A stretch of 64,000 bases of DNA from Bacillota bacterium (GCA_023435025.1 JAEYSE010000030.1:565-64564); one strand, 5' to 3'; positions 18,104 to 35,105 are shown, numbered from the stretch's first letter. The notes: generated from the sequence alone by a model not told the origin. Numbers and translations are program-made.

Positions 18104-18982
18104 ATGCAAAACATACTTAGTTTTCGATTCTGCGATACGAATTCAAAAACAATCTCGGATGACATTGGGACTATCTTTCCCGACTGGGGAGCGGATGAAA
18201 ACATTTGCGTGATGAGCCCGCATGATGATGACGCGGTCATCGGCGCAGGATACGCTATGCTTGCTGCGCGGCAGGCCGGCGCAAACGTATATGTATTCAT
18301 TTTTTGTAGGGGCGATGCCGGATACAGTTCCTTGGAGGAAAAAGAGACAATTGAGCAGACCAGAATGGCGGAGACATTGGAGTGTTACGCGCATTTGGGC
18401 ATACCGCACAAAAACATACTACGCCTCGGATTTGGCGACTTTTCTGCGATCGGCCGTATTGGGTGGACCACGGCGGCGAATGCCGAGGGCGATATGCCCC
18501 GCATGCTGCGCTTTTTTAGGGAGAATAAAATCACCCGTGTACTTGTGCCTAACCATTATCGGGAGCACATCGATCATCTCGCGGCTCATATCATGGCAAG
18601 CTACAATGCGCCACAGGCGGGAGACCCCATACTGGTTGATTACGGCAAGCCCCATACGGTAAGATCCTTCCTCGAATACTCCGTATGGGCGGATTTTGAC
18701 CCGGAAGACGCTCTGGTAAATAAAAGGGATACATCCGTTCGCGCGAACCGGATTATCATAGCATCCGGCATTGCGGAAGACCAGATCGCGGAAGCGATCC
18801 GTGAATATCGTTCGCAAGAACAAATCATTTCAGATCTCATCCGGCAAAGGTCAGAGCGGAAATTGAAGGATGGTCGGGGTATAGAGGCCTATATCGCCTT
18901 CGATCCTCGCCCTAAGATTTCTTTCTCTCCATATATTAAGTTCATTGGACAAATAGATTCCGAATGCCATGTTAACGAATGA
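18104..18982 (+). CDS. PIG-L/LmbE-family N-acetyl-sugar deacetylase
   Basis: VMSPHDDDAVIG (PHxDD motif) and HYREHIDHLAAH (second His motif). 292 aa. Confidence 0.8.
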   Translation: MQNILSFRFCDTNSKTISDDIGTIFPDWGADENICVMSPHDDDAVIGAGYAMLAARQAGANVYVFIFCRGDAGYSSLEEKETIEQTRMAETLECYAHLGIPHKNILRLGFGDFSAIGRIGWTTAANAEGDMPRMLRFFRENKITRVLVPNHYREHIDHLAAHIMASYNAPQAGDPILVDYGKPHTVRSFLEYSVWADFDPEDALVNKRDTSVRANRIIIASGIAEDQIAEAIREYRSQEQIISDLIRQRSERKLKDGRGIEAYIAFDPRPKISFSPYIKFIGQIDSECHVNE

Positions 18983-19087
18983 TTAGACAACCAGGAATCG
19001 TGGCGAAGCACCCGACCTGCAGGACTTGCGGTGAGGATTTTTACAAAGCCGCGAATGCGGTGTTAAACAAACCTATGGAGGCGAGAC

Positions 19088-19990
19088 ATGAAACAGTGTT
19101 TATTTTTGATCAGCTTGAGCCGGCTTTTTGAGTCCGGACTAACGATGGATGGAGCATTGGAATTCGCGAAGGAGGCGGGATTTGGTGCGGTGGAGCCTAC
19201 GAACATCGGCGAGTTGGCTGTGCCAGATACCGAGAAAGCCAAGAGGTTCGCCGACCGGTGTTCGCGGCTTGGACTTGAGATCCCGTGCTTTTCAATGCCT
19301 GTCAGGCTGGAAACGGCTGATTATATCCAACAGACAGAGCGTATTTTTGCATTCATTGATATGGCACATGTGATGGGCGCCAAATTTTTTCACCATACCA
19401 TCGCTCCCACGCTCGAACATACGGCACACGAAATGCCTTTGTACGAGCAAATCAAACCGCAGTTGATCGAAGCTGCCGGGCGGATCCAGCGTTATGCCGC
19501 AAAGTATGGCATTACCTGCGTATATGAGGATCAAGGATATGTCGTAAACGGGATTCAAAACTATGGAGACTTTTTCCTGAGCCTGCCTGAGCCGAACAAG
19601 GGGGTGGTTTCGGATTTGGGGAACATTCTTTTTGTCAATGAGCGGCCCGAGGATTTCACTGCGCATTTCTTGAATAATATTGTGCACGTACATATAAAGG
19701 ATTATCTTAAAAAGGCCGGTTCGGCTCAATTCCCCGGAAAAGGATGGTATCTAAGTAAAAACGGTGATTTTCTGCGTGGTACCGTGATCGGTCACGGCAG
19801 TGTGGATTTCATACAAATATTCAAGATTTTGATACGGTCGGGTTACAAAGGATGGTATTCAATTGAATTCGATGGGCTCGAAGATCCGTTGCTCGCTGCG
19901 GAGCTGGGCCGTGAGAATGCACAATATTATTATGAGGAAGCGCAGCGCCAGATCGGCGCAGGCCCTAACAAGGCCATAAACGTGGTATGA
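19088..19990 (+). CDS. sugar phosphate isomerase/epimerase (xylose-isomerase-like TIM barrel)
   Basis: 300 aa. EFAKEAGFGAVE..HHT..YEDQG..VHIKDY..WYSIEF pattern of the AP-endonuclease-2/IolE-like TIM-barrel family. RBS GGAGG. Confidence 0.75.
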   Translation: MKQCLFLISLSRLFESGLTMDGALEFAKEAGFGAVEPTNIGELAVPDTEKAKRFADRCSRLGLEIPCFSMPVRLETADYIQQTERIFAFIDMAHVMGAKFFHHTIAPTLEHTAHEMPLYEQIKPQLIEAAGRIQRYAAKYGITCVYEDQGYVVNGIQNYGDFFLSLPEPNKGVVSDLGNILFVNERPEDFTAHFLNNIVHVHIKDYLKKAGSAQFPGKGWYLSKNGDFLRGTVIGHGSVDFIQIFKILIRSGYKGWYSIEFDGLEDPLLAAELGRENAQYYYEEAQRQIGAGPNKAINVV

Positions 19991-20051
19991 TCTTTTCCTA
20001 ACAGATCAATCGTCTATGATTCGTAGCAAACGCAAAATTTGGAGGACCTTA

Positions 20052-21425
20052 ATGAAGACAAGCTTTTTCTCTTTGAAAATTACACCGCCGATCGGTGTTC
20101 CTCTTGCCGGCAACGGAAGGGAGGATTCCCGTTCGCGCGGCATCCATGACGATTTATTCGCCAATTTCGCCTATCTGGCATCTGATACGCATCGGCATCT
20201 GTTCATCGAAATGGATCTGCTCGGCATAAAAAAATGCGATGCAGACGCCATGAAAGCAAATATCGAAAGGAGCTGCAATATTCCGGCCGCAAATATCACT
20301 ATCACGGCAACGCATACGCACAGCGGCCCCAATACCGTAGAAATATTCAAACCTTTTTTAAACGATTCAGATATGGCTGCATGTTTGGATTACAGGGTTT
20401 GGCTTGTGGACGCAGTCTCTTCTGCGGCGCCCGAAGTGATCGCCGCCGCTGCAGATTCCCAAATGGCGCACAGCCGCGGTATTGTAGACGGTTTCTCATT
20501 TAATCGCCGCGTTATGATGGATGACGGTACGCTGCGCATGGTTTTTGAGGATTATGACCGGGATCGGATCGTCCGTCTTGCCGGCCCAAACGGCGACAGC
20601 ATGATGCATGCTTTTGTATTTACGGACTTAAACGCCAAAGTAAAGGGCCTGATCCTCCAATATACCAGCCATCCAGCGGTGGTATGCGGCGAGGACTGGC
20701 TCTATACGCGCGACTATATCCACACCCTTACGGAAAAACTCAAGCAGTATTATGGACAGGACGTCGTTGTTCTTTACATGAATGGCGCACAAGGCAACCA
20801 GGTGGCGGCCAACCCTTATAAACCTTTCATTACCGGTTTTGCCGAAGCGGAACGCGTGGGCATGGGACTCGCCGAAGGAGCAATCCGTATTATTGACGGC
20901 GCTCTTGAAAACCGCGGTTTAAAAGAACGCATTCAGTTGCTGTCGCTCAGCGAGAAACTGACGCTCCCTTTGCGGCGTATTACAAAAGAGGAAGCTGAAC
21001 GCGCACAGAACTTAATGGGAGCCCAGTATAAGGGAGCACAATTGCATGGATTGGACCCACGGGTGGAAGCCCTCAGCATATTAGAAATGGCAGGGCTTAC
21101 GCACACGGAAGAAGAAACTTTGATACAGGCCATCGTGCTAGGTGATGCGCTGATACTCACCTTCCCGGGCGAAGTTTTTTTGGAGCATGCCATAAACGCC
21201 TTGGCGGAAAATCCTTTTTGCGATGCGATGATATTCGGCCTTGCAAATGATTATGTAGGATATATTCCAACCAAAGAGGCTTTTTCAGAGGGAGGATACG
21301 AGGTAAAAACTTCGTATGCGTCCAGCCGGTACGATCCTTGCGCGGGGGATTTGCTTACAGCCGCAAGCAGAGATTTGATCCGTAAGATAGCGGCTGCTAT
21401 CCACATGGGGCAGGCGCCTGCCTGA
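20052..21425 (+). CDS. neutral/alkaline ceramidase N-terminal-domain-like amidohydrolase (putative N-acyl amidase)
   Basis: ITPPIGVPLAGNGREDSRSRGIHDDLFAN..ATHTHSGPN resembles the bacterial ceramidase-like family. ATG 20052 follows GGAGG; the ORF track starts at 20016. Confidence 0.6.
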   Translation: MKTSFFSLKITPPIGVPLAGNGREDSRSRGIHDDLFANFAYLASDTHRHLFIEMDLLGIKKCDADAMKANIERSCNIPAANITITATHTHSGPNTVEIFKPFLNDSDMAACLDYRVWLVDAVSSAAPEVIAAAADSQMAHSRGIVDGFSFNRRVMMDDGTLRMVFEDYDRDRIVRLAGPNGDSMMHAFVFTDLNAKVKGLILQYTSHPAVVCGEDWLYTRDYIHTLTEKLKQYYGQDVVVLYMNGAQGNQVAANPYKPFITGFAEAERVGMGLAEGAIRIIDGALENRGLKERIQLLSLSEKLTLPLRRITKEEAERAQNLMGAQYKGAQLHGLDPRVEALSILEMAGLTHTEEETLIQAIVLGDALILTFPGEVFLEHAINALAENPFCDAMIFGLANDYVGYIPTKEAFSEGGYEVKTSYASSRYDPCAGDLLTAASRDLIRKIAAAIHMGQAPA

Positions 21426-21469
21426 CCATCTGCACATCCATGTCAATCGAAATTTAGAATTTCAAAAAC

Positions 21470-21498
21470 TTGACTTTAAAACAAAAACGAAACATAAT
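21470..21498 (+). promoter_or_regulatory. putative internal promoter
   Basis: TTGACT, 17 nt, CATAAT, about 45 nt upstream of the NagB-like gene. Confidence 0.5.
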
Positions 21499-21542
21499 GA
21501 TTAAAGAATTAATAATTCCACTGGAATAAATAAAAGGAGGCA

Positions 21543-22499
21543 ATGTTTATGGACATGCTCAACACGATGAAAGGATCGTATTTCGAAGAGATCATGCCCG
21601 ACGGTTGGGACATCGGGCGTATCGGAAAATGCTGTTCTTACGATCCGGATTCCATCCTGGATCCGCAGCCGTTCTGGAACAAAGGCTTCAAACCGGTGCC
21701 TTGTGACAGCTTAGAAGAGTTCGGTGCCTATATGGGTCACGAGATTGCCATGCAGATCAGGAATGCGAAGGAGAGCGGGCACGATTTAATTCTGATTCTG
21801 CCGGTGGGACCTATGGGGATGTATAAATGGGCGGTTTATTATTTGAAGGAATGGAATGTGGACTGTAAACATGTGCATGGGTTCAACATGGATGAATGGA
21901 GTGATGATAAGGGCAATACCCTGCCGCCGGAAAATCCCGCTGCCTTCCAAAACGCCATGATCAACGCCTTTTACGGGCCTCTCGGTGAATTGACCGTTCC
22001 AGTCGGCCAGAGAAATTTTGCGACTAAGGATAATCTCCCCCAGTATGCTGAAAAAATTGCTGCACTTAAGGCAAAAGGCGCAAAACAGGTACTGGTATTC
22101 GGCATCGGTCGTATGTGTCATATTGCCTTCTGGGAACCCCAATTCGCTACTGAGTACGCGAATGAGAAAGAATGGATGGCTGCGACCCATAGAATTGGCG
22201 CGAGACTGCATCCTTTTACGATCGAGCAAAACGCGATAACAAGCTTTCGAAGCAATTGGTCGCTGATTCCTTGCTTCGCAAATACGATAGGACCCGGCAT
22301 CATATTCGGTTCCGACTATATCATTGGAGGAGCGGACGGCGTATTGAGCCGTGGGATGCAGTGGCAAGGCATGAGTTTATGGATCACGCTGCGGCATGGA
22401 CCTTCAAAAAGCATTACATCCAGCTATATCCCGACTCTCCCAGGTAAGCTGTTCTTCATGAAAGAACTTGCGGGACCGCTGTGCGCAGATACGAACTGA
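21543..22499 (+). CDS. glucosamine-6-phosphate deaminase/isomerase-like (NagB/6-phosphogluconolactonase superfamily), long divergent form
   Basis: 318 aa. [34 protein letters not shown] resembles the NagB fold motifs (compare the canonical copy at 62040). The start could be ATG 21549. Confidence 0.55.
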
Positions 22500-22624
22500 G
22501 CAAGTTAATGTTAAACAGCGGCTGCCTTGCGCAGCCGCTGCCTCCTGGTGCGGTACTTTTTCTGGCCGTACAAAGCCCTCTTCAATAAGGCGGTTTGAGC
22601 CAAAAAAGGTGTATGCTATGCCGT

Positions 22625-23857
22625 CTAGTTGATGCTTCTGAATATTTCGTCCATTGACATCATGACTGCGGCACACCGCATGGACTCGTAATCACTTTTT
22701 GAGCCTTCTATGAAAACTTCACCTTTTGAGTTGCTAAGCTTAAATTCCCGATCCATCGTATCGCGTACCATTTGAATAAATTCTTCGCCCAAAGCAAGAA
22801 TGGATCCGCCGATATGTATGCTTTGTACGTCAAATAAGTTGATAACACTCACAAGTCCGCAGCACAGCGTGAAACAGAAATCCTGCATCACCCGCAGTAC
22901 TTCTGGATCGTTTGCCTGGAATGACCTTGCGACCTCATCCAGCGCGCTCAGATTTTGTTCCGCACCGAAGGATTCAAGATAGGAGAGATTAAGCTGTGTC
23001 TTTTCGTTCAGGGTGCGGAACAACGCTACGGTCGAGCACATCGTTTCAAGGCAGCCGTGATTGGAACATTTGCATATAGGGCCGGTGCGGTCTACGATGA
23101 TATGTCCGATCTCTAAAGGGAAACAGCTATTGATATCCTTGTGTGCATCCCCGATCACGACCGCTGCGCTGATACCTTCATCGATATTGACGGATAAGAG
23201 CCGAGTGCCGGAAACATAATCGTCAGCCAAAAATTCTCTGAAGGCGATCACACGCGTTACGTTGCTGACTCGTACATCGGCTTCCGGGAAATGCTTCCTA
23301 AGGGATAAGATCAAATCCTTTTCTATGAACTCTTCAAGAGGGAGCACTGCGGAAAACTCAAAACTTCCTGTTTCGGAATTAAATAATCCCGGGAACATGA
23401 CATGTACGCCCAAAAGCCTGTAAAGCGCCGCTCTTTTGGACTTTAGCAATGTACGAATTTCTTCGCTCACCCGCTCTGCCGTTACTTTTTCATCGCGTAC
23501 TCTGACGCTTCCGAGCTTATGGAGGCAGATGTCATAAAGGCTGCAAATAAAACCACGGCTCAGTATCTCAATGGTGGCGATATACCCGCCAGTTGCGTTT
23601 ACTTTGAGCATGATAGGCTTACGTCCCCGGATTGACGAATCGCCAAGGCCCGTCTCTATGACCCACTTGCTTTGGATCAGCTCGTCCACGAGCATGGAGA
23701 CCGTCGTGGGGGATAGGCCGGTAATCTCTGCCAGCTGCGCCCTAGATACCGGCATATTCTTGCGTATAAGACCAAACAAAAGCGTTAAATTAGAGGTTTT
23801 AATTTTTTGCTGCGAGAACCCGTTTTTTACGCGCTCTTTATGCTTTGATTTTATCAT
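22625..23857 (-). CDS. ROK-family transcriptional regulator (wHTH + ROK sugar-kinase-like domain)
   Basis: N-terminal HTH (VSRAQLAEITGLSPTTVSMLVDEL) and the ROK zinc motif CKCSNHGCLE. 410 aa. Confidence 0.85.
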   Translation of the reverse strand: MIKSKHKERVKNGFSQQKIKTSNLTLLFGLIRKNMPVSRAQLAEITGLSPTTVSMLVDELIQSKWVIETGLGDSSIRGRKPIMLKVNATGGYIATIEILSRGFICSLYDICLHKLGSVRVRDEKVTAERVSEEIRTLLKSKRAALYRLLGVHVMFPGLFNSETGSFEFSAVLPLEEFIEKDLILSLRKHFPEADVRVSNVTRVIAFREFLADDYVSGTRLLSVNIDEGISAAVVIGDAHKDINSCFPLEIGHIIVDRTGPICKCSNHGCLETMCSTVALFRTLNEKTQLNLSYLESFGAEQNLSALDEVARSFQANDPEVLRVMQDFCFTLCCGLVSVINLFDVQSIHIGGSILALGEEFIQMVRDTMDREFKLSNSKGEVFIEGSKSDYESMRCAAVMMSMDEIFRSIN

Positions 23858-25157: not shown

Positions 25158-25208
25158 CCTGTACCTCTACAATTATCAAAATTTATGAGGAAAGGTTTGG
25201 AACACGTT

Positions 25209-26690
25209 ATGGAAAAAGAAAACATACTGGTTCTTGAGAATGTAAGCAAAAGCTTCCCCGGCGTAAAAGCATTGGACGATGTTTCGTTCAAAATTGAGCG
25301 AGGGAGCATACATGCACTGGTCGGAGAAAACGGCGCGGGCAAAAGCACAATGATCAAAATTCTCGCCGGTATCTACCACGCCGATAAAGGCAATGTACTA
25401 CTCAACGGCAAACCGGTGAACTTTAAAACGCCCCATGATTCCATCCGGACCGGCATTGCTGTGGTCCACCAGGAAATCAAGCTGGCGGAGCCCCTGACCG
25501 TCGCCGAGAATATGTTCATCGGCAATCTGATTTATAAAAAAGGATTGGTCGATTGGGCCGAAATGCGCGCCCGAGCCAGAAAAATCATATCCGAATTGGG
25601 AATCGATATTGACGTGAATGCTCCAGTGGAATCCCTTTCGGTGGCTAAAAAACAAATCGTTGAGATCTGCAAGGCAATCAACCATGACGTCAAGCTGCTG
25701 ATCATGGATGAGCCTTCCGCGACATTGTCCGACCGTGAGCTCGAGATTATGTTTGATATTATACGCAAGCTTAAGGAAGAAGGAATCACGGTTATCTACA
25801 TATCACACCGTCTGGATGAGGTATTCAAGCTTGCCGATTATGTAACAGTTCTGCGCGATGGAAAGCATATCGATACGTTGCCCATCGAAAAAGTGAACAG
25901 GGACCTCCTGATTACGCTGATGGTCGGCCGGGAGTTGGGCCAGGAATATCCCAAGGTTAAGGTCGAAGTCGGGGAAACGGTACTCGAAGTCAAGAATCTT
26001 ACCCGAAAAGGCGTTTTGAAGGACATCAGCTTCAGCGTTAAAAAAGGAGAAGTTCTCGGAATATCCGGATTGGTCGGGTCGGGCCGGACTGAGCTTGCGC
26101 GGGCAATCCTGGGTATTGATAAAATCGACTCCGGCGAGGTCAGGGTTCGAGGGAAAAAAGTAAATTATAGGTCCTTTAAGGAAGCCATTCAAGATGGTTT
26201 AGGGCTAATCCCGGAGGACAGAAAACAGCAGGGGCTTGTTCAAATATTCTCGGTAAAACGAAATATCTGCATGGTGAGCATCGACAAGGTCATCAAAAAA
26301 GGCATTGTTCGCAATGCTCTGGAAACAAAGTATGCGGAGGAATACTCCAAGAAGCTGCATGTTTCTACCCCAACACTGGATACACAGGTCCAATATCTTT
26401 CTGGCGGAAATCAGCAGAAGGTCGTCATTGCAAAGTGGATGCTACAAAACAGCGACATCTTATTCCTGGATGAACCGACCCGTGGTATCGACGTCGGCGC
26501 GAAGGCGGAGATCTACCGTCTGATCAACGGATTGGTCGAAGAGGGAAAAACCATCGTGCTAATCTCGTCCGAAATGCCAGAAATACTTGGAATGTGCGAC
26601 CGGATCGTCGTACTGCACGACGGGATTATGACGGGCGAACTGACTTGCGAGGAAGCAAGTCAGGAAAAGATTATGGCGCTTTGTGTGTAA
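25209..26690 (+). CDS. sugar ABC transporter ATP-binding protein (two ATPase domains, RbsA/MglA-like)
   Basis: GENGAGKST, LSGGNQQKV and a duplicated nucleotide-binding fold. Confidence 0.9.
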   Translation: MEKENILVLENVSKSFPGVKALDDVSFKIERGSIHALVGENGAGKSTMIKILAGIYHADKGNVLLNGKPVNFKTPHDSIRTGIAVVHQEIKLAEPLTVAENMFIGNLIYKKGLVDWAEMRARARKIISELGIDIDVNAPVESLSVAKKQIVEICKAINHDVKLLIMDEPSATLSDRELEIMFDIIRKLKEEGITVIYISHRLDEVFKLADYVTVLRDGKHIDTLPIEKVNRDLLITLMVGRELGQEYPKVKVEVGETVLEVKNLTRKGVLKDISFSVKKGEVLGISGLVGSGRTELARAILGIDKIDSGEVRVRGKKVNYRSFKEAIQDGLGLIPEDRKQQGLVQIFSVKRNICMVSIDKVIKKGIVRNALETKYAEEYSKKLHVSTPTLDTQVQYLSGGNQQKVVIAKWMLQNSDILFLDEPTRGIDVGAKAEIYRLINGLVEEGKTIVLISSEMPEILGMCDRIVVLHDGIMTGELTCEEASQEKIMALCV

Positions 26691-26741
26691 CAGGATCTGA
26701 CGGGAAGCCGTTAAGATAAAAAAACGATGGAGGAAACGACA

Positions 26742-27785: not shown

Positions 27786-27805
27786 TTATCCGTGTAGGTT
27801 CGGAG

Positions 27806-27830
27806 GGGGCGCTTACAGCGCCCCTTCCTT
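27806..27830 (+). terminator. weak terminator-like hairpin after the binding-protein gene
   Basis: GGGGCGCT tac AGCGCCCC followed by TTCCTTAT; poor U-run. Confidence 0.35.
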
Positions 27831-27905
27831 ATAAAAATGCAATCAATAAGGACCCTATCGGGTTCTCCATCAATAAATACATCATGAACCGGGAGGTACT
27901 AAGCA

Positions 27906-29180
27906 ATGAGTCAAAAGGATAATGAACTGGCAATGAACGCGGCGGGGATCGCCGAACTCGGATTTCCCATGTGGCCTCAGTTTAACCCCAAGACCGCAGA
28001 TGACGTAAGACAAGTAATCGAATCCGGTCTCGTAAACTATTGGACCGGGAAAAAGGGTATGCAGTTTGAGGAAATGTTCAGAGATTGGGCAGGCGCCAAG
28101 ATGGCCATTTCCTGCACGAATGGAACCGCAGCGCTGCATATCGGTCTTGCAAGCCTTGGGATTGGCCCCGGGGATGAGGTATTGGTTCCTTCCTACTCGT
28201 TTATTGCTTCCTCGTTTGCGATTGTACAGGCCGGCGCCGTTCCCGTGTTCTGCGATGTTACGGAGGACCATACCATTGATCCCGATGATATCGAGCGCAA
28301 GATCACACCGAGGACGAAGGGCATTGTTTGTGTACACCTTTACGGCGTTGTCTGTGACATGGCTCGTATCATGAGCATTGCGAAGAAGCATAACTTATAC
28401 GTGATCGAGGACGTGGCCCAGTGTATCGGCGGAAAATTTAACGGGCAGATGACCGGTACGATCGGGGACGTCGGCTGCTTCAGCTTTTGCCAGTCCAAGC
28501 ATTTCACAACAGGCGGAGAAGGCGGAATGGTGCTTACCAACAATGAGGACGTTGGCTGGGAGGCACGCTCCTTCAGGGACCACGGATATGACGTTAAAAA
28601 GCGTATGAACATGCTTGCCTTGGAAGAAAAACTCCCCTATATCCATAACCGAGTCGGCTTTAACTACCGTATGACAGAAATTCAGAGCCAAATCGGTATC
28701 AACGAAATGGAACGTTTTGATTCGTGGAATCTGGCAAGACGTTTAGAATTCGCAAAAATGTATGACCAGGCATTTGCGGGCCTGAAGGGTATCGCAAGGC
28801 TGCCCCTGAACACGGAGGAGCGTGTAAACAGTTATTGGTGGTATCCAATCACTCTGGATCTTGACCTGCTGACGATTGATGCACCCACTTTTGTCAAAAA
28901 GTTGGTGGAAATGAAAGTCCCCTGCTATGGCATACAGTGGCCCGAAGCATATGAAGAACAGGCATACAAACAGCTTATCGGTTTTGGAACCGCGAATTTC
29001 CCGTTCCATTCAAAAGAATATACCCGCGAAGGTCTTACCTATGAAAATGCGCTTTGCCCCGTAGCAAAATCCTTGCGGGCCCGCACGGTGAACCTGTTCT
29101 TACATCCGACATGGGAACGCGCGCATATTCAGAGAGTAATCGACGCTTTCAAAAAGATACTTGCCGATTATCAGAAATAG
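27906..29180 (+). CDS. DegT/DnrJ/EryC1/StrS-family PLP-dependent sugar aminotransferase
   Basis: 424 aa with the FSFCQSKHFTTGGEGG PLP-lysine region. RBS GGGAGG. Confidence 0.85.
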   Translation: MSQKDNELAMNAAGIAELGFPMWPQFNPKTADDVRQVIESGLVNYWTGKKGMQFEEMFRDWAGAKMAISCTNGTAALHIGLASLGIGPGDEVLVPSYSFIASSFAIVQAGAVPVFCDVTEDHTIDPDDIERKITPRTKGIVCVHLYGVVCDMARIMSIAKKHNLYVIEDVAQCIGGKFNGQMTGTIGDVGCFSFCQSKHFTTGGEGGMVLTNNEDVGWEARSFRDHGYDVKKRMNMLALEEKLPYIHNRVGFNYRMTEIQSQIGINEMERFDSWNLARRLEFAKMYDQAFAGLKGIARLPLNTEERVNSYWWYPITLDLDLLTIDAPTFVKKLVEMKVPCYGIQWPEAYEEQAYKQLIGFGTANFPFHSKEYTREGLTYENALCPVAKSLRARTVNLFLHPTWERAHIQRVIDAFKKILADYQK

Positions 29181-29192
29181 CGGGAGGTCCAA

Positions 29193-30236
29193 ATGAAAAG
29201 ACTTCGTTGGGGTGTGATCGGGGCCGGCGGCATCGCGGACCGCCGCACGATACCGGGTATGATGCTGGCAAACAACGCTGAGTTGGTTGCGGTAATGGAA
29301 GTGGATATTGAGCTGGCGGAAAAGTTGCGCGTAAAGTACGGAGCGAAACGTGCTTATGACAACGATTTGGCGCTGCTCGAAGATCCAGAAGTGGACGCGG
29401 TATATATCGCTACGCCCGTCGTACATCATGCCAGGCAGGCGCGGCTGGCTGCAGACCACGGGAAACACATTTTGATAGAAAAACCACTGGCGATGACCAG
29501 TGAAGAAGGCGCCGATGTGATCGAGTACTGCCAAAGCAAAGGTGTCAAGATCGCAGCGGGCTTGATGATGCGCTTTGGCGGATACGTCATGGAAATGAAA
29601 AAAGCTGTCGCGGAAGGCAGGATCGGGGATGTAGTCACCGGTTTCTCTCAGTTCACCTGCTGGTATCCGGATATGGAGAACGCATGGCGGCAGAAGAAGT
29701 CTGCTGCGGGTGGCGGAGCGCTGATGGATATGGGGGTTCATTGCATCGACCTTATCCAGTATATTACCGGAAGTCCTGTCGTTCAGGTGGCCGCATTCCA
29801 CGATACGCTGACGTTCCGCTATGAAGTGGAGGATTCCTCTTCCGTTCTGCTTCGCTTAAAGAATGGAGCCATGTGCACGGTACAATCGCATTTCAATATT
29901 CCAGACGATGCTGCAAAATGGCGTTTGGAGTTTTTCGGCACAAAGGGAAGGCTCATGGGGGATGCGGTCATTGGTCAGGTGGATGGCGGAAGCGTCGATG
30001 CGTTGTTTATGGATGCTGTAGGCGGCTATGACGCCGCGCAGGACAAAAAACAGGTTGATTCAAGCGTGTTGAATGCCGAACTCGGAAACATGTATCAGCG
30101 TGAGATCGAAAGCTTCGGCAGATCCATTTTAGAAAACACACCGTTGGAGATACCTGCCAGCGACGCCGTACAGGTTCAAAGGGTGATTGAAGCCGCGTAT
30201 CGCAGCAACGACGAAAAACGAATCATTGACTTATAA
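29193..30236 (+). CDS. Gfo/Idh/MocA-family NAD(P)-dependent oxidoreductase
   Basis: N-terminal Rossmann fold LRWGVIGAGGIA and the EKPLA motif. 347 aa. Confidence 0.85.
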   Translation: MKRLRWGVIGAGGIADRRTIPGMMLANNAELVAVMEVDIELAEKLRVKYGAKRAYDNDLALLEDPEVDAVYIATPVVHHARQARLAADHGKHILIEKPLAMTSEEGADVIEYCQSKGVKIAAGLMMRFGGYVMEMKKAVAEGRIGDVVTGFSQFTCWYPDMENAWRQKKSAAGGGALMDMGVHCIDLIQYITGSPVVQVAAFHDTLTFRYEVEDSSSVLLRLKNGAMCTVQSHFNIPDDAAKWRLEFFGTKGRLMGDAVIGQVDGGSVDALFMDAVGGYDAAQDKKQVDSSVLNAELGNMYQREIESFGRSILENTPLEIPASDAVQVQRVIEAAYRSNDEKRIIDL

Positions 30237-30252
30237 ATTCAGGAGTGCAGCT

Positions 30253-31098
30253 ATGAAAAAGAGTATCAACTTCTGGTCGTTCGCAGGGGGGACTACGGTC
30301 CCCCAGGCAATCAGGCTTGCAAAGGATGCGGGCTTTCATGGGATTGAACTGGCTATGGCGCAAACGGGTCTTACGGGACTTGACACCGAGAACGCCGGCG
30401 AGGAAGCTGCGAAGATCGCGCGGGAGGAAGGGATTGCATTACCTACGCTCGCCTGCGGGCTCTGCTGGGACTATTTGCTGACAAGCAAGTTAAAACAAAT
30501 CCGGCAGCAAGCAAAAGATATGATCAGGCGGCAACTAGATCTTGCGAACAAAATCGGCGCCGAAGCCATCCTTGTCATACCCGGCGCGGTTGGCGTGGAT
30601 TTTCTGCCGGGCGGGGGTAGCGACCTGATGCCGTACGACGAAGCTTACGACGCATCGCTTGAGGGATTGAAGGAACTTGCACCTTATGCGGAGCAGGCCG
30701 GAGTCAATATCGCCCTTGAAAACGTCTGGAATAAATTTTTACTGTCCCCGCTGGAGTTCAGAGATTTTATCGATAAGATCGGTTCTGAGTATGTCGGCTG
30801 CTATTTTGACGTCGGCAACGTGATCCTCACGGGCTACCCGGAGCAGTGGATCAATATCTTGGGCAAGCGGATCAAAGCGGTTCATCTCAAGGATTACAGA
30901 CGTGAGCCGGGCGGGTTTAATTGCTTCTGTGATCTGCTTTCGGGGGACGTCAACTGGCCTGCCGTCATGGATGCGTTTGAAGCAATCGGGTATGACGGTT
31001 GGTATGCGCCAGAGATGATTCCAAACTATAAACACTATTCCGACCAGACCATTTACAACGCGTCTGCCGCGTGTAACAGGATCTTGAACAGAAAGTAG
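30253..31098 (+). CDS. sugar phosphate isomerase/epimerase (xylose-isomerase-like TIM barrel)
   Basis: INFWSF..GFHGIEL..LENVWN..VHLKDY pattern. ATG 30253 follows AGGAG; the ORF track starts at 30187. Confidence 0.8.
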   Translation: MKKSINFWSFAGGTTVPQAIRLAKDAGFHGIELAMAQTGLTGLDTENAGEEAAKIAREEGIALPTLACGLCWDYLLTSKLKQIRQQAKDMIRRQLDLANKIGAEAILVIPGAVGVDFLPGGGSDLMPYDEAYDASLEGLKELAPYAEQAGVNIALENVWNKFLLSPLEFRDFIDKIGSEYVGCYFDVGNVILTGYPEQWINILGKRIKAVHLKDYRREPGGFNCFCDLLSGDVNWPAVMDAFEAIGYDGWYAPEMIPNYKHYSDQTIYNASAACNRILNRK

Positions 31099-31106
31099 AG
31101 GATAAC

Positions 31107-32108
31107 ATGGCGAACATTGGAATCATTGGCGCGGGATTTATGGGTACCGCCCACTCCGCCGCATTAAAGAACTCAAAAAAACATAAGTTGATCGGAATCG
31201 CAGATATCGATATCGAAAAAGGCAGCAAGCTTGCCAAAGAAAGAGGCTGCCTGTTTTTCTCCACGGCCGAGGAAATGCTGCAGAGGACCGACATCGATAT
31301 CGTTCACGTCTGTTTGCCGACGAATCGTCATTGCGAATACATCACGAAAGCTGCCAATGCGAAAAAGAGCGTTTTGTGCGAAAAACCGTTTGCGTTGCAT
31401 GCGGATGAGATCGACCAGGCAATCGAAGCCGTGGAAAGCAATGGCGTAAAGCTGATGATTGCACAGGTCGTACGGTTTTGGCCCGAGAATACAGTTATCA
31501 AAGAGTATGTCAATAGCGGCAGGCTGGGTGAAGTTAAAATGGTCAGCGCACACCGTTTGGGGCAGATACCCGCATGGGCGCAATGGTACCGCGACCCTGA
31601 AATCAGCGGCGGGGGCCTATTCGACCTGCATACGCATGATATCGACAATATGATCGACTTGTTTGGCAAATGCACAGAGGTATACTCCATTGGCCAAAAG
31701 TTTGAAGGCTGCTGGAACTATATGTCTACCTCCCTGACTTTTGAAAGCGGAATGAAATCGATCGTCGAGTCCTCATTGAACATGCCGGGCGATTATCCGT
31801 TCTCGACAGGTTTTAGGGTTATCGGCAGCAAGGCCTGCATCGAGCAGTGTATGAAAGCGGGCGCAAACCTTGACGATATGTCAAACAGCACGCGCTACTT
31901 GAAATTGTTTGAAGATGGCAAACCCTGCGTTGAAATTCCATATCCGGATATCGATGCATACGCCAGTGAAATCGAGCATTTTGCAGATTGCTTTGATTCG
32001 GGCAGCGAGCCGCGGATATCGCCGTACGAGTCACGAAATGTAATGAAGGTGATGCGCGCAATCGAGAAATCACTGGATACAGGCGCCGTCGTCAAAACTG
32101 GTTGGTAA
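31107..32108 (+). CDS. Gfo/Idh/MocA-family oxidoreductase (second copy)
   Basis: NIGIIGAGFMG Rossmann N-terminus and the CEKPFA motif. 333 aa. Confidence 0.85.
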   Translation: MANIGIIGAGFMGTAHSAALKNSKKHKLIGIADIDIEKGSKLAKERGCLFFSTAEEMLQRTDIDIVHVCLPTNRHCEYITKAANAKKSVLCEKPFALHADEIDQAIEAVESNGVKLMIAQVVRFWPENTVIKEYVNSGRLGEVKMVSAHRLGQIPAWAQWYRDPEISGGGLFDLHTHDIDNMIDLFGKCTEVYSIGQKFEGCWNYMSTSLTFESGMKSIVESSLNMPGDYPFSTGFRVIGSKACIEQCMKAGANLDDMSNSTRYLKLFEDGKPCVEIPYPDIDAYASEIEHFADCFDSGSEPRISPYESRNVMKVMRAIEKSLDTGAVVKTGW

Positions 32109-32123
32109 AGAAGAAAGCCGAGC

Positions 32124-32738
32124 ATGACCAAAGTATATGCATTAACCCGGGCCGCTATTGTTGCGCAAAAAGTAGATTGGAACAAGGTGGAGGCAGTGGC
32201 CATTGATGAGTATCAATGGCTGGGCGAAGCCCCAATCCGCGCATCGGCCCGGGTCTGTTATGATGAAAGCGGCCTGTACGCAAGGCTGGAAGCAGAAGAA
32301 CAGAACATACTTGCGCGTTTCAAAGGGACGTATGATATGGTCTGCCTGGATAGCTGTCTGGAGCTGTTTTTGCGTCCGGTCGAGGACGATATTCGCTACT
32401 TCAACTTTGAATTCAACCCGAACGGCGCAATGTATTTAGGCTTTGGTCACGATCGCTTTGACAGCGTGCGTCAGATCGTTCAGAACCCCAAACAGCTGTT
32501 TCGGGTCGCACCCTTCGAACATAATGGCGGATGGGGAATTGAGTTCTTTATACCTGTAAGCTTTCTTCAACTGTATTTTCCGGGTTATCTATTCAAAAGC
32601 GGAAACATAATCTTAGGAAACTTTTACAAATGCGGCGATGAAACGAACCGGCCGCATTATATCTCATGGAATAAAGTCCAAAGCGAGACCCCTGATTTTC
32701 ATTTGCCTGAACAATTCGGCAAATGGATCTTAAAGTAG
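32124..32738 (+). CDS. carbohydrate-binding family 9-like (CBM9_2/DOMON-like) domain protein, no signal peptide
   Basis: 204 aa. The overall pattern and the C-terminal ..ISWNKVQSETPDFHLPEQFG resemble CBM9-like domain proteins as I remember them. Recognition is from memory only. Confidence 0.45.
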   Translation: MTKVYALTRAAIVAQKVDWNKVEAVAIDEYQWLGEAPIRASARVCYDESGLYARLEAEEQNILARFKGTYDMVCLDSCLELFLRPVEDDIRYFNFEFNPNGAMYLGFGHDRFDSVRQIVQNPKQLFRVAPFEHNGGWGIEFFIPVSFLQLYFPGYLFKSGNIILGNFYKCGDETNRPHYISWNKVQSETPDFHLPEQFGKWILK

Positions 32739-32747
32739 GAGGCATAC

Positions 32748-33908
32748 ATGACAACCACGCTTTTCAACGGACGTTTGATTACCCCGGAGTCTATCTATCA
32801 TGGCGGGGTCGTGATAGAGGACGCGAAAATATTGCGTTTGTTTGCCGGTGACGATTTTGAGCCTAAGGGCGAGCTCATCGATTGCAAGGGGAATTACATT
32901 GCGCCGGGTTTTGTGGATATCCACACGCACTCCACTATCGAGGGTGATGTGATGGACGCGACTGTCGAGTCTCTGCACAGAATGACGGCGCAGCATAACC
33001 GCCACGGTACAACGTCGCTGTTGGCGACCACTTTATCCAGTACGCATGAGAATATCGCAAAAGCGCTTGATAATATCAATGTAGTCATGAATATGCCTCC
33101 GTCAGGCGCCAGGGTTCTTGGCGCGCATCTGGAAGGAAACTACTTTGCACCCGAAATGGCGGGCGCACAGAATCCTCTGTTTTTATACCCGCCCGCAAAC
33201 GACGATTATATGGATTTCGTAAACAAGGGCTGTATCAGGCGGATAGCCGCGGCTCCGGAGCTTCCCGGCGCACTGGAAATGGCGCGCAAACTGAGGCCGA
33301 TGGGTATTCAGTTTTCGATTGGCCATTCCAACGGAAAACCTGCTGATGTCGAAAAAGCCATCGCGGCAGGCTATACGACGCTAACGCATATTTTCAATGC
33401 GCAATCCGCATTGACGAGCGTCTTCTACTATCCGGATGGTGGCGTATGCGAAGCTTCGCTGATCCATGATAACATCATCGTGGAATGCATTTGTGACGGA
33501 AATCATCTATCCCCTACCCTACTCAACCTCATCTATAAGATCAAAGGCGCCGAAGGAATGGTTGGCATCACCGATTCAGTATACGCCGGGGCGAAAGACG
33601 GCGATTACATGTTCGGTGGCCTGGAAGTCGAAGTCAGGGATAATATATGCATCCTTAAGGACGGTTCAGCCTTCGCGGGGAGCGTTGCGACAATGGATCT
33701 ATGCGCGCGCACGCTTTATAAAAAAGCTTCGATTCCTTTGCAGGACGTAGTGAAAATATGCTCCGGCACGCCCGCAAAAGTAATTGGCGAGGACCACCGC
33801 ATAGGCTCCATTAAGCCCGGATATGACGCCGATATCATTGTGCTGGATGACGATATCCATATTCTTTATACGATGGTATTGGGAAAAGCAACAAATAACA
33901 GACTCTAG
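32748..33908 (+). CDS. nagA: N-acetylglucosamine-6-phosphate deacetylase family amidohydrolase
   Basis: 386 aa. GFVDIHTHS metal motif, ..GAHLEGNYF.., ..IGHSN.., ..TH.FNA.. in NagA-like order. Confidence 0.75.
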   Translation: MTTTLFNGRLITPESIYHGGVVIEDAKILRLFAGDDFEPKGELIDCKGNYIAPGFVDIHTHSTIEGDVMDATVESLHRMTAQHNRHGTTSLLATTLSSTHENIAKALDNINVVMNMPPSGARVLGAHLEGNYFAPEMAGAQNPLFLYPPANDDYMDFVNKGCIRRIAAAPELPGALEMARKLRPMGIQFSIGHSNGKPADVEKAIAAGYTTLTHIFNAQSALTSVFYYPDGGVCEASLIHDNIIVECICDGNHLSPTLLNLIYKIKGAEGMVGITDSVYAGAKDGDYMFGGLEVEVRDNICILKDGSAFAGSVATMDLCARTLYKKASIPLQDVVKICSGTPAKVIGEDHRIGSIKPGYDADIIVLDDDIHILYTMVLGKATNNRL

Positions 33909-34073
33909 GTTTTAGCAAACAGAGAGAGGCCACTGTCAACGAAACTCCCGAGATGCCACACTTTACTTTTAAGCGCTTGTAATTGCGGTAAACGCGACAG
34001 AGCAAATAGACGAAATGGCATGGGCGCGTGCTGAACGAAACGTGCGCCCATGCAGTATTCTTGGAGGTCATAA

Positions 34074-35105
34074 ATGAGAAAGCAAGGTATCGCAGTAGCC
34101 GGCAATATGATCGTCGATGTGCTGTATCCGATTGTAGGTTTTCCGAAGCCAGGTGAGTTAACGACCATAGCGGAAGGAATTTCGCGTTCTTCGGGCGGCG
34201 CGCTGTGTAACGTGATTATAGATTTGGCAAGGCTTGACGCCACTTTACCGCTGACGGCGCTAGGCCGCCTCGGTACCGACAGTGAAGGCGATTTCGTGCT
34301 TGACAAGCTGCGTGCGCACGCAAATATTGATACATCTAACGTCCGGCGGGAGGGGTTAACCTCCTTTACGGTAGTGACGGCGGACGAGATCACCAAGGAG
34401 CGCACGTTCTTCCATTACCGTGGGGCGAACGCACATTTTTGTGAGGAAGATATTGACTGGGATCATATGAAGGCGGATATTTTGCATATCGGCTACATAC
34501 TGCTTCTGGATGCGCTGGATGAGGACGACGCGGTATACGGCACGAAAATGGCGAAGCTTTTACACGCGGCTCAGCAGCACGGACTTAAGACCTCCATCGA
34601 TGTGGTCAGTGAAGCGAGCGATCGGTTTAAGCGGATTGTCCCGCCGGCTCTGAAATATACGGACTACTGCATCATCAATGAGGTAGAAGCTGAAGCATCC
34701 ACGGGCGTGTCGTTGCGCAATAAAGCAGGGGCTCTGCTGATCGATAACATACCTCTGGCCTTGCAGCATCTGAAGAACCTTGGCGTATCGACCTGGGCGG
34801 TAATCCATTGCCCCGAAGGTGGGTACGGCCTTGATGAAAACGGCACCTTTTCTGCAGCCGATAGCCTTCGGCTCCCCGATGGTTACATCAAGGGTACGGT
34901 GGGCGCGGGCGATGCATTCTGCGCGGGCGTACTGTATGGGGCGTTCCGGGAGTGGACACTCGAGCAAGCTATTAAACTGGGTACGGCCACGGCAGCCTGT
35001 TCCCTTTCTCATAGCGGAGCGTCGGAGGGTATTCTCCCCGTGCAACAGGCTCTAGAGCTATATGATCTATTGGACTCTACATCTCGGGAACATAAGACCG
35101 TATAG
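34074..35105 (+). CDS. PfkB/ribokinase-family carbohydrate kinase
   Basis: 343 aa with the C-terminal GTVGAGDAFCAG anion-hole/ATP motif. Confidence 0.85.
   Translation: MRKQGIAVAGNMIVDVLYPIVGFPKPGELTTIAEGISRSSGGALCNVIIDLARLDATLPLTALGRLGTDSEGDFVLDKLRAHANIDTSNVRREGLTSFTVVTADEITKERTFFHYRGANAHFCEEDIDWDHMKADILHIGYILLLDALDEDDAVYGTKMAKLLHAAQQHGLKTSIDVVSEASDRFKRIVPPALKYTDYCIINEVEAEASTGVSLRNKAGALLIDNIPLALQHLKNLGVSTWAVIHCPEGGYGLDENGTFSAADSLRLPDGYIKGTVGAGDAFCAGVLYGAFREWTLEQAIKLGTATAACSLSHSGASEGILPVQQALELYDLLDSTSREHKTV

Follow-up and report, generated by a model that had tools for sequence, protein, structure and literature searches.

A modular accessory gene island in a Bacillota bacterium that may encode catabolism of an N-acylated diamino sugar

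Introduction

What compound, if any single one, is served by a locus that places an ABC importer and a ROK regulator beside three deacylases of different families, a NagB-like protein, a DegT aminotransferase, two Gfo/Idh/MocA oxidoreductases, two TIM-barrel proteins and a PfkB kinase? The locus occupies positions 18104-35105 of the window, the 64,000-nucleotide stretch of Bacillota DNA that was analysed. All 15 genes (g1-g15) were confirmed by open reading frames and family models, and a sequence-only reading of this DNA was right about the enzyme families. That reading knew of no characterised catabolic pathway with this set, and a full-text literature search likewise found no published pathway for it. 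We judge the chances to be about even that the locus breaks down a diamino sugar with two N-acyl groups, which would be deacylated, transaminated, reduced at the resulting keto group, deaminated at C2 and phosphorylated as a ketose.

Organisation and distribution of the gene island

The locus is a real accessory gene island with a patchy distribution (one of eight genomes of the genus), and was probably acquired horizontally. It is modular and includes more than one operon, its genes falling into four or five transcription units or more. A terminator-like hairpin lies where g4 and g5 converge, g5 and g6 are divergently oriented, and further hairpins are found at 27800-27832 and ~34010-34050. 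The order of g3-g14 is kept in close relatives (L001, L003, L009, L010 and L012; 48-87% identity), and g1, g2 and g15 are peripheral. The locus had been described as a single 17-kb unit, and this does not hold, given that g1 was not present in eight same-genus genomes and g15 is not kept in the clusters of relatives.

Hundreds of Clostridia species from guts and digesters also have the cluster core. Over ~80 related loci, genes for DegT, Gfo/Idh/MocA, a ceramidase-fold amidase, LmbE, a 316-aa NagB-like protein and ROK recur in shuffled orders and with three importer types (CUT2 ABC, CUT1 ABC and MFS), accompanied in some loci by a cytoplasmic GH20. The gene combination is non-random, and the occurrence of the core enzymes together in many orders with three importer types points to the breakdown of an N-acylated amino sugar that is taken up by the cell and has an extra amino group.

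Co-occurrence was assessed in 300 Clostridia genomes, 24 of which have DegT orthologues. The NagB-like gene is present in all 24 and in 33 of the 276 DegT-negative genomes (57/300 overall), and the amidase gene in 21/24 and 13/276, respectively; the association of core genes (Fisher p ~1e-20) takes no account of phylogeny or of possible co-transfer on one island. As the NagB-like and LmbE genes are paired in the 33 further genomes without DegT, the DegT, Gfo and amidase genes appear to be an add-on to a base module.

Regulator and importer

Gene g5 (22625-23857) is on the minus strand, and all other genes of the locus are on the plus strand. It encodes a ROK-family regulator (92.8 bits) with an N-terminal winged helix (MarR_2/HTH_24 matches). 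The NagC and Mlc models match it with 110-116 bits, under their cut-offs, and it is beside the importer in relatives too (59-70% identity). Pfam and NCBIfam models identified a CUT2-type permease (g6; likely start 24153 in an ORF from 24003), the double ATPase of the importer (g7; 25185-26690) and a Peripla_BP_4 lipoprotein binding protein (g8; 26727-27785), which are 73-80% identical to those of relatives. The g8 sequence includes a lipobox, LSLAAC, and its closest solved relatives are ribose-binding proteins (≤80 bits).

Deacylases

Gene g1 (18104-18982) encodes a divergent, cytoplasmic LmbE/PIG-L deacetylase of 292 aa (PF02585, 54.9 bits). The BshB1 model matched it with only 35 bits (cut-off 182.5). 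The sole homologue found (43% identity, genome G326) is again encoded 3' of a NagB-like gene.

The 457-aa product of g3 (20052-21425; the ORF had been given as 20016-21425) is a ceramidase-fold Zn amidase and putative N-deacylase, with a Ceramidase_alk match of 36 bits that is restricted to the N-terminus. Its AlphaFold2 model (pLDDT 92) matched only the neutral ceramidases of P. aeruginosa (2ZWS) and human (4WGK), with TMq 0.70 at 15-16% sequence identity. Residues H88, H90, H207, E374, Y404, Y416 and R152 are invariant across 38 homologues, and the zinc-site His-x-His, His, Glu and Tyr are shared with neutral ceramidase; the predicted structure and the alignment show the catalytic fold of a ceramidase, with a zinc site that does not vary. 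Unlike neutral ceramidase, g3 consists of the catalytic domain only, lacking the C-terminal Ig-like domain and a signal peptide, and its family occurs in sugar operons, in some genomes as tandem arrays. Nothing suggests a lipid substrate.

The third deacylase, g14 (32748-33908), is a NagA-type amidohydrolase (TIGR00221, 263 bits; cut-off 226). It is kept in L009 and L010 (67-69% identity), and a 25%-identical amidohydrolase takes its place in L089. Since g14 is above the equivalog cut-off for NagA, which acts on GlcNAc-6-phosphate, a phosphorylated intermediate would fit it better, and this counts against our preferred reading.

Aminotransferase, oxidoreductases, TIM barrels and kinase

The DegT-family PLP aminotransferase g9 (27906-29180; 424 aa; PF01041, 322 bits) is the signature gene of the cluster family, with orthologues of 68-87% identity in >590 species genomes. 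It has the PLP-lysine motif SKHFTTGGEGG, in which K198 is invariant. Its top solved relative is 7L7X (254 bits), the C4 aminotransferase of UDP-4-keto-6-deoxy-GlcNAc; NtdA and WbpE gave 138-153 bits. In relatives, the cluster is next to another DegT paralogue that has a ROK gene of its own, a pair that is on a different contig here, and a glutamate dehydrogenase gene is found immediately upstream of the L001 cluster. The Gfo/Idh/MocA oxidoreductase GfoA (g10; 29193-30236; Pfam), a putative keto-sugar reductase, starts 13 nt 3' of g9. A GfoA homologue is found in 31 of 42 full-length loci, and in most loci lies directly downstream of DegT; the top solved relative is 1,5-anhydro-D-fructose reductase (123 bits).

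Two TIM barrels (PF01261), both putative keto-sugar isomerases/epimerases, are encoded by g2 (TIMa, xylose-isomerase-like; 19088-19990; 87 bits) and g11 (TIMb, AP_endonuc_2; 30253-31098; 155 bits; ORF given as 30187-31098, likely start 30253). Both had been called IolE-like; the TIM barrels are present, but the likeness is weak. TIMa has a homologue in the L001 cluster only (46% identity). TIMb is weakly similar to tagatose/psicose 3-epimerases and MJ1311. Of 42 loci, 10 have it, frequently accompanied by a Gfo gene and placed under an AraC regulator. The second Gfo/Idh/MocA oxidoreductase, GfoB (g12; 31107-32108; Pfam), is 71-76% identical to its closest relatives, and its closest solved relatives are the DgpA C-glycoside 3-oxidases (96 bits, N-terminal half only). 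Next is g13 (32124-32738; PF16011, 109 bits), a cytoplasmic CBM9_2-like beta-sandwich protein with no signal peptide, for which the sole solved relative, 4JPQ, is uncharacterised; a paralogue on contig C56 adjoins a canonical NagB gene. The PfkB-family kinase g15 (34074-35105; PF00294, 115 bits), preceded by a 166-nt gap with a hairpin, is probably a ketose kinase. Its 63% paralogue adjoins a D-lyxose/mannose isomerase gene.

It is unlikely, though worth serious consideration, that these genes represent two or three independent small pathways linked only by proximity or by a common regulator, and not by a common substrate. LmbE, the NagB-like protein and NagA could then serve an ordinary N-acetylhexosamine and Gfo/TIM/Gfo a keto-sugar or 3-keto-glycoside, next to a DegT/Gfo couple. 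This would suit the presence of several transcription units with intervening hairpins, the 33/300 genomes that have LmbE and NagB-like genes but no DegT, the failure of g1, g2 and g15 to be conserved with the core, the relationship of GfoB to DgpA-type glycoside 3-oxidases, and the separation of TIMb/Gfo into a unit of its own under AraC control in Wansuia, L016 and L017. However, every sampled genome with DegT also has the NagB-like gene (24/24), and DegT adjoins LmbE, NagB-like and amidase genes in many orders and across phyla. The BT_2158/2159 and levoglucosan models are also far under their cut-offs, and the locus includes neither a DUF1080 gene nor a known lyase subunit.

An aminocyclitol or GlcNAc-inositol substrate, with DegT converting an inosamine to an inosose, Gfo/TIM proteins acting like IolG/IolE and LmbE acting like MshB on a GlcNAc-inositol conjugate, is improbable. 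The solved relatives of g9 do include glutamine:scyllo-inosose and 2-deoxy-scyllo-inosose aminotransferases (179-187 bits), IolG is the best NCBIfam model for both Gfo proteins (151-152 bits), the TIM barrels weakly match IolE and IolO, and MshB belongs to the LmbE family. Yet the iol models are far under their cut-offs (IolG 152 versus 355, IolE 52 for g2 versus 290, IolC 67 versus 300), the MshB model does not match g1, and IolD, IolB, IolA and IolJ are absent from the locus. The obligatory partner of DegT, a NagB-fold deaminase, and the GH20 and NanA-type lyases of relatives act on aldoses, not cyclitols. These two substrates, proposed earlier, gained no specific support.

NagB-like protein

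Gene g4 (21543-22499), which has a promoter-like site of its own at 21470-21498, encodes a NagB-like deaminase/isomerase of a distinct 316-aa family that scored 49 bits with TIGR00502 (nagB; cut-off 237) and had no matches in a Pfam search. Its AlphaFold2 model matched GlcN6P deaminases with E 5e-17, as compared with 1e-8 for 6-phosphogluconolactonases. The family retains the NagB fold and equivalents of the catalytic residues D72, H143 and E148, and lacks the 41-44 loop, R172 and K208, the three canonical 6-phosphate contacts (in an alignment at ~22% identity). Given the loss of these contacts, phosphorylation is probably the last step, and the enzyme, as judged from its sequence, probably uses an unphosphorylated sugar to give a ketose. 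In DegT-less genomes, the NagB-like gene adjoins LmbE in 11 of 12 loci, frequently with genes for PfkB, a class-II aldolase and a mutarotase. The proposal that phosphorylation precedes oxidation and transamination is therefore doubtful, considering both the missing phosphate site and the pairing of the NagB-like protein with a free-sugar-type LmbE deacetylase, mutarotase and downstream PfkB kinase. Counting against the preferred reading, the aldolases found with LmbE/NagB-like modules belong to the ketose-1,6-bisphosphate type.

It is very improbable that the locus encodes an oxidative, non-phosphorylative hexosamine route, in which Gfo oxidises an N-acetylhexosamine at C1 to a lactone, the NagB-like protein is the lactonase, the amidase yields a 2-amino-aldonate, and DegT a 2-keto-aldonate for phosphorylation by PfkB. 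Such a route is favoured by the absence of a phosphate site, the presence of 6-phosphogluconolactonases in the NagB superfamily and of aldose 1-dehydrogenases in the Gfo family (Gfo6 model, 96 bits), the naming of some NagB-like family members as lactonases, and the PfkB nature of keto-acid-sugar kinases. Nevertheless, the deaminase residues are kept, the model's match to deaminases is stronger than that to lactonases by nine orders of magnitude, LmbE/NagB-like modules occur without Gfo or DegT yet with ketose-bisphosphate aldolases, and we know of no DegT enzyme that acts on an aldonate.

Comparison with known systems

Adjacent genes for a Gfo/Idh/MocA dehydrogenase and a DegT enzyme are also found in NtdC/NtdA (KabC/KabA, Bacillus kanosamine), WbpB/WbpE and GnnA/GnnB, couples that carry a single sugar carbon between the alcohol, ketone and amine states; NtdA uses a non-nucleotide sugar. 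Unlike this locus, these systems are biosynthetic and act at C3, and the couple here has no HAD phosphatase or N-acetyltransferase partner. As the context of the locus is catabolic, its DegT/Gfo couple would run in reverse. Although the characterised DegT/Gfo pairs are, to our knowledge, all biosynthetic and some Oscillospiraceae have a DegT-Gfo-GH20-amidase operon amid housekeeping genes, an aminating couple that supplies the envelope of the cell itself with a 3- or 4-amino sugar made from imported or recycled N-acetylhexosamine is very improbable, since the clusters are patchy accessory elements that include ROK repressors, three importer types, deacylases, a deaminase, kinases and aldolases, but no nucleotidyltransferase, glycosyltransferase, N-acetyltransferase or flippase.

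The succession of deacetylase, deaminase/isomerase, kinase and aldolase resembles GlcNAc/GalNAc catabolism (NagA-NagB; AgaA-AgaS/AgaI-PfkB-KbaY), with which the NagA equivalog g14 and the fold and catalytic residues of g4 are shared. However, the base-module deacetylase is of LmbE type here, g4 belongs to a family separate from NagB, and those pathways have no counterpart of DegT, the Gfo proteins, the TIM barrels or the ceramidase-fold amidase. In the archaeal chitin route, the LmbE-family enzyme Dac of Thermococcus deacetylates unphosphorylated GlcNAc/chitobiose before any kinase, and this locus would likewise use an LmbE-family enzyme on a free amino sugar. The archaeal glucosamine is then phosphorylated and deaminated by the SIS-type GlmD, with no aminotransferase, whereas here the NagB-fold enzyme seems to act ahead of the kinase.

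DegT orthologues (67-69% identical) also occur in cross-phylum clusters, in which genes for a DHDPS/NanA-family lyase and a BNR sialidase-like protein adjoin orthologous DegT, LmbE and NagB-like genes, an arrangement that resembles sialic acid catabolism, in which a sialidase and NanA lyase lead into the hexosamine pathway; the window lacks a lyase, NanK and NanE. In a scheme of this type, an aminotransferase and amidases would be needed only if the substrate were a di-amino nonulosonic acid or the hexose fragment of one, for which no published catabolic pathway was found.

Proposed pathway

In the preferred reading, catabolism of a diamino sugar, the substrate is probably a monosaccharide-sized amino sugar with two N-acylated amines, one at C2 and one elsewhere on the ring. 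A bacillosamine-like 2,4-diamino-2,4,6-trideoxyhexose is the leading candidate; this earlier suggestion has gained some support and is unproven. In this scheme, where we infer which way the DegT/Gfo couple runs, in what order the steps occur and how many N-acyl groups are present, the sugar would be taken up by g6-g8 under repression by g5, and its N-acyl groups stripped by the Zn amidase g3, aided by g1 and/or g14. DegT (g9) would pass the amino group that is not at C2 to a 2-oxo acid, and GfoA (g10), presumably translationally coupled to DegT, would reduce the remaining keto sugar, the two forming a biosynthetic dehydrogenase/aminotransferase couple operating backwards. TIMb, GfoB and the CBM9_2 protein may adjust stereochemistry around the keto group. 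The resulting N-acetylhexosamine would enter the base module, LmbE followed by g4, and the ketose formed would be phosphorylated by a PfkB kinase (g15 or another) and pass to glycolysis. If this is true, the island encodes an undescribed route for the removal of acyl and amino groups from an imported N-acylated amino sugar.

Gene content and transcriptional organisation

The genome (3.17 Mb in 131 contigs, 92% complete) carries the locus on contig C64, at window positions 18104-35105, and ORF listing with Pfam and NCBIfam scans recovered all genes named in the sequence-only reading. The genes, numbered g1 to g15 in order, lie on the plus strand with the exception of g5. The first four encode an LmbE/PIG-L protein (g1; PF02585, 54.9 bits against a cut-off of 28.2), a xylose-isomerase-like TIM barrel (g2), a 457-aa protein with a neutral-ceramidase N-terminal match (g3) and a NagB-like protein without a Pfam match (g4). 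Next come, on the minus strand, the gene for a winged-helix ROK regulator (g5), and then those for a CUT2-type ABC importer whose binding protein is a lipoprotein (g6-g8) and for a DegT aminotransferase (g9). The remaining genes are for two Gfo/Idh/MocA oxidoreductases, GfoA (g10) and GfoB (g12), separated by a second TIM barrel, TIMb (g11), and for a cytoplasmic CBM9_2 protein (g13), a NagA equivalog (g14) and a PfkB kinase (g15). The lengths of homologues, together with ribosome-binding sites, place the likely starts of g3, g6 and g11 at 20052, 24153 and 30253, respectively.

The g5 product combines winged-helix and ROK domains and its gene is divergent from g6-g8, as in ROK-regulated sugar operons; this arrangement is kept in the related loci L001, L003 and L010. 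In a search for the ROK operator, the stretches between ROK and importer genes were compared across five loci and the window was scanned; the sole lead, and not a convincing one, was an AT-rich TTTGAA-N-TTCAAA-like element. The palindrome-like element at 21453 (window 21440-21500), AAATTTAGAATTTCAAA, immediately precedes a TTGACT-17-CATAAT promoter-like site ahead of g4. L010 and L012 have a similar sequence, TTTGAAATTCAAA, between their ROK and importer genes. The element ahead of g4, in AT-rich sequence, is a weak candidate for a ROK operator.

The convergent genes g4 and g5 meet at a hairpin, g6 is transcribed away from g5, a further hairpin lies before g15, and a strong GC-rich hairpin (GGAGGGGGCGCTTACAGCGCCCCTTCC) occupies 27800-27832, after the binding-protein gene and before the DegT gene. 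Together these features argue for multiple transcription units. The hairpin at 27800-27832 probably acts as an mRNA stabiliser or attenuator, setting expression of the enzymes apart from that of the importer. A promoter and terminator scan gave a number of sites not above that in shuffled sequence.

Conservation of the locus

Synteny of g3-g14, with 48-87% amino-acid identity, was found in the close relatives L001, L003, L009, L010 and L012. Gene g1 is missing in all eight same-genus genomes, and its single homologue (in the sampled genome G326) also follows a NagB-like gene. A counterpart of g2 was present in L001 only, and g15 was not found in the relatives' clusters. The proposal of a single 17-kb locus thus holds for the g3-g14 block but not for one unit, as g1, g2 and g15 are peripheral and multiple transcription units are indicated. 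The same division bears on the rival reading of the locus as a composite of independent pathways: the separate transcription units and peripheral genes are what such a composite has on its side, and the presence of the NagB-like gene in every DegT-positive genome of the sample (24/24) stands on the other.

The cluster occurs in one of eight genomes of the genus and in none of 32 other relatives, which indicates that the island is accessory and was probably acquired horizontally. Directly upstream of g1, window 14000-18000 is AT-rich (G+C 0.40, against ~0.50 in the flanks) and carries a CHAT-domain gene and a bactofilin-like gene. This stretch fits an island boundary and horizontal acquisition.

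A paralogue of g15 (63% identity) lies ~40 kb downstream, outside the window, in a sugar locus at C64:69500-77000 that includes ROK, a CUT2 ABC importer, D-lyxose/mannose isomerase and PfkB genes. Given this neighbourhood of its paralogue, g15 is predicted to phosphorylate a ketose. Next to the cluster, L003, L010 and L014 also have a second DegT gene paired with a ROK gene of its own; the encoded paralogue is 35% identical to g9. In the present genome this second DegT gene is located on another contig (C127:14484-16979) with a ROK+HTH gene directly 3', and its product is 68% identical to the cluster-adjoining paralogue of L010.

Comparison with characterised pathways

The sequence-only reading knew of no characterised catabolic pathway with this enzyme set, and a full-text literature search gave no account of the cluster. 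Neither LmbE nor an aminotransferase is mentioned in the mucin-sugar reconstruction of Ravcheev & Thiele.

Catabolism of an aminocyclitol is a further, improbable rival. Both TIM barrels had been described as IolE-like; their TIM-barrel family was borne out, but the likeness to IolE is weak (52 and 39 bits against a cut-off of 290). Scores were likewise below the cut-offs for IolG (152 and 151 against 355) and IolC (67 against 300), and the other iol families, IolD, IolB and IolA, have no member in the locus. The locus also falls outside the 3-keto-glycoside cleavage systems (BT2156-2160, DgpABC and levoglucosan Lgd). Models of the BT_2158/2159 families gave 32-50 bits against cut-offs of 650-750, and the levoglucosan dehydrogenase model gave 85-109 bits against 650. 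The top solved match of GfoB was DgpA, over the Rossmann half only, and TIMb had no match to solved lyases. Searches of solved structures with the binding protein, TIMb, GfoA, GfoB and the CBM9_2 protein yielded no informative specificity.

A paralogue of the CBM9_2 protein (29% identical to g13) is encoded at C56:488-3735, flanked by a PTS fragment and a canonical NagB gene, the latter followed by CutC and DUF7916 genes. From this position beside a canonical NagB gene, CBM9_2 proteins would seem to accompany the amino-sugar operons of this organism in general, as accessories.

The NagB-like protein and the putative deacylases

The g4 product has no match to PF01182 and scores 49 bits with TIGR00502, against a cut-off of 237. 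Its AlphaFold model (pLDDT 83) was matched by Foldseek to GlcN-6-P deaminases (E 5e-17, TMt 0.73-0.81) and to 6-phosphogluconolactonases (E 1e-8). An oxidative aldonate route is another, improbable rival reading; in its favour the NagB superfamily includes 6-phosphogluconolactonases and the Gfo family aldose 1-dehydrogenases, and against it is the better deaminase match.

Twenty members of the g4 family were aligned, at low identity, with E. coli NagB and the canonical NagBs of these genomes. Positions are in the established literature numbering of NagB, in which 72, 143 and 148 are catalytic and 41-44, 172 and 208 are phosphate contacts. The g4 family has the NagB fold with Asp72, His143 and Glu148, and keeps the NMDEW and H-IAFWEP motifs. 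In this low-identity alignment all three canonical 6-phosphate contacts are lost: the 41-44 loop has a two-residue deletion (VG--PMG), Arg172 is replaced by I or T and Lys208 by G, the replacements being found in all 20 members aligned. Loss of these contacts suggests that the substrate of g4 would be unphosphorylated or a 6-deoxy sugar. Such a substrate fits the LmbE-type deacetylase and mutarotase, and the placement of the kinase downstream. The family has nearly 7000 matches, which bear generic names only in the sources.

The possibility that g4 is the sole NagB of the genome was rejected, as three canonical PF01182 genes lie elsewhere. One belongs to a separate chitobiose-type locus (window 53783-62765) that includes a CUT1 ABC importer, a response regulator/AraC hybrid, a GH94 phosphorylase (806 aa) and a phosphoglucomutase-family mutase. 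The genome thus already has a standard GlcNAc route. At C22:9746-17852, another CUT2 importer is encoded together with a class-II aldolase and an FGGY kinase; a BshB1-like LmbE gene in this locus is cut by the contig end.

The g3 product is not a neutral ceramidase as judged by the equivalog model NF041649 (20 bits against a cut-off of 1200), and is shorter than those enzymes (~640-670 aa). Its model (pLDDT 92) matches neutral ceramidases only (TMq 0.70, 15-16% identity), with only the catalytic-domain fold in common. The invariant His88, His90, His207, Glu374, Tyr404, Tyr416 and Arg152 fit a zinc site. As it lacks a signal peptide and the C-terminal domain, g3 is modelled as a putative cytoplasmic amidase rather than a ceramidase. 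In each of two Clostridia genomes (G048:C12:128769-134215 and G111:C24:11844-17293), four ceramidase-fold paralogues lie in tandem, which suggests diversification toward different N-acyl groups. The g1 product belongs to the LmbE/PIG-L family but not to the BshB1/MshB equivalog (35 bits against 182.5). The g14 product belongs to the NagA equivalog TIGR00221 (263.4 bits against 225.65) and scored 176 bits against 483 with the E. coli-type model NF008371.

The DegT aminotransferase

The g9 product is a DegT/DnrJ/EryC1 aminotransferase (PF01041, 322 bits against 19.8) with the PLP lysine, and not the dehydratase-type His; K198 in the motif SKHFTTGGEGG is invariant in 23 orthologues. The top NCBIfam models were those of PseC (227 bits against 423.5) and the LegC family (217 against 420), both below their cut-offs, and by these scores g9 falls outside the nucleotide-sugar subgroup (PseC, LegC, PglE and WecE). 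Salvage for biosynthesis, the weakest of the rivals, has against it that no nucleotidyl- or glycosyltransferase gene was found near g9.

The best solved relative of g9 is Pcryo_0638 (7L7X), followed by perosamine synthases. Pcryo_0638 acts in di-N-acetylbacillosamine synthesis, as the C4 aminotransferase for UDP-4-keto-6-deoxy-GlcNAc (PMC8040287). Assignment of the g9 regiochemistry from homology was rejected as unreliable, since Pcryo_0638 and PglE, which catalyse the same reaction, score 254 and 112 bits, respectively.

Distribution and gene partners

The sequence of this DegT is conserved to an unusual degree. Among the matches listed, orthologues 68-87% identical to g9 occur in more than 590 species-level genomes, mostly of gut, rumen and digester Clostridia (Oscillospiraceae, Christensenellaceae, Wansuia hejianensis), and also of Sphaerochaetaceae. 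Partners were surveyed in 42 non-redundant DegT loci, ~10 kb on each side, with key counts by tblastn. Gfo genes were present in 31 loci, ROK in 24, ceramidase-fold amidases of two subfamilies in 20, NagB-like in 18, LmbE in 17, TIMb in 10 and a CUT2 importer in eight.

The gene order is highly variable. A minimal operon, DegT-LmbE-NagB-like-Gfo-PfkB-ROK, is found in L035 and L048, Oscillospiraceae have a DegT-Gfo-GH20-amidase arrangement, and spirochaete loci combine CUT1 ABC, ROK, NagB-like, amidase, DegT, Gfo and LmbE genes. In Wansuia, ROK-DegT-Gfo-ROK is followed by an AraC-controlled TIM-Gfo-Gfo unit, and then by genes for LmbE, NagB-like, a class-II aldolase, PfkB, a 448-aa protein of no known family, mutarotase, NagB and NagA.

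In a sample of 300 evenly drawn genomes of Clostridia, DegT orthologues were present in 24 (8%), from nine families. With phylogeny and co-transfer ignored, the association with DegT was strong both for the NagB-like gene (24/24 DegT-positive and 33/276 other genomes; Fisher p 4e-20) and for the ceramidase-fold gene (21/24 and 13/276; p 2e-20). In 12 DegT-less genomes, the NagB-like gene adjoins LmbE in 11 loci, often with PfkB, a class-II ketose-bisphosphate-type aldolase, mutarotase or short-chain dehydrogenases. LmbE and the NagB-like protein thus form a widespread base module for some N-acetylhexosamine; the add-on that feeds it consists of DegT, Gfo and the amidase and may include GH20.

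A cross-phylum variant has ~600-aa ceramidase-fold proteins fused to a small domain, which in L089 is a separate gene. The order is MFS, an Amidohydro_2/class-III aminotransferase fusion, Gfo, amidase, small protein, DegT, LmbE, NagB-like, a DHDPS/NanA-type lyase, aldo-keto reductase and Gfo. The DegT proteins are 67-69% identical to g9 and the NagB-like proteins 63-65% identical to g4, and a BNR sialidase-like gene lies near one such cluster. Judging by this gene content, the same DegT/LmbE/NagB-like orthologues may also function downstream of a sialic-acid-type lyase.

Proposed catabolic route and candidate substrate

The sequence-only reading proposed a probably multiply N-acylated amino sugar or aminocyclitol as substrate. 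The best-supported model, to which we give an even chance, has a di-N-acylated diamino sugar imported and catabolised; all mechanistic statements are inferences from sequence, models and gene context. The sugar would be deacylated by g3, g1 or g14, and g9 would transaminate an amine other than that at C2. The resulting keto sugar would be reduced by GfoA, with optional epimerisation and redox tailoring by g11-g13. Deamination and isomerisation at C2 of the unphosphorylated sugar would then be catalysed by g4, and the ketose phosphorylated by g15 or another kinase.

Surface glycans of bacteria and archaea commonly contain sugars of the 2,4-diacylamido-2,4,6-trideoxyhexose type. This class is the leading candidate for the substrate, though a tentative one, and takes in bacillosamine-type and AAT-type sugars and the hexose left after NanA-type lyase cleavage of pseudaminic and legionaminic acids. 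For these sugars, N4-deacylation would be followed by C4 transamination by a catabolic DegT, 4-keto reduction and epimerisation, and N2-deacetylation. A phosphate-independent NagB-fold enzyme would then deaminate the free 6-deoxy amino sugar, and the ketose would finally be 1-phosphorylated. That the DegT/Gfo/ceramidase-fold amidase/LmbE/NagB-like set is the first catabolic pathway for this class, without a 6-phosphate at any step, is a possibility of rather low probability, and the window might, on that same doubtful footing, represent its monosaccharide-import version.

In favour of the trideoxyhexose candidate are the nearest relatives of DegT, the lost phosphate site in g4, the multiple amidases and the lyase-containing cluster variant. 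Against it are the assignment of g14 to the NagA equivalog, the bisphosphate type of the aldolases linked to the base module, the action of known Gfo/DegT couples at C3, and the resemblance of g15 to its fructokinase-like paralogue.

The pathway is unnamed, and annotation pipelines call its genes biosynthetic or generic. Its confirmation would give a DegT/Gfo couple a catabolic role for the first time, and would add a phosphate-independent family of NagB-fold deaminases and a family of sugar-directed ceramidase-fold amidases. The question can be tested directly, since there are cultured carriers, Wansuia hejianensis and Christensenella among them. Confirmation would also mean that unusual microbial or host amino sugars are a food source in gut ecosystems.
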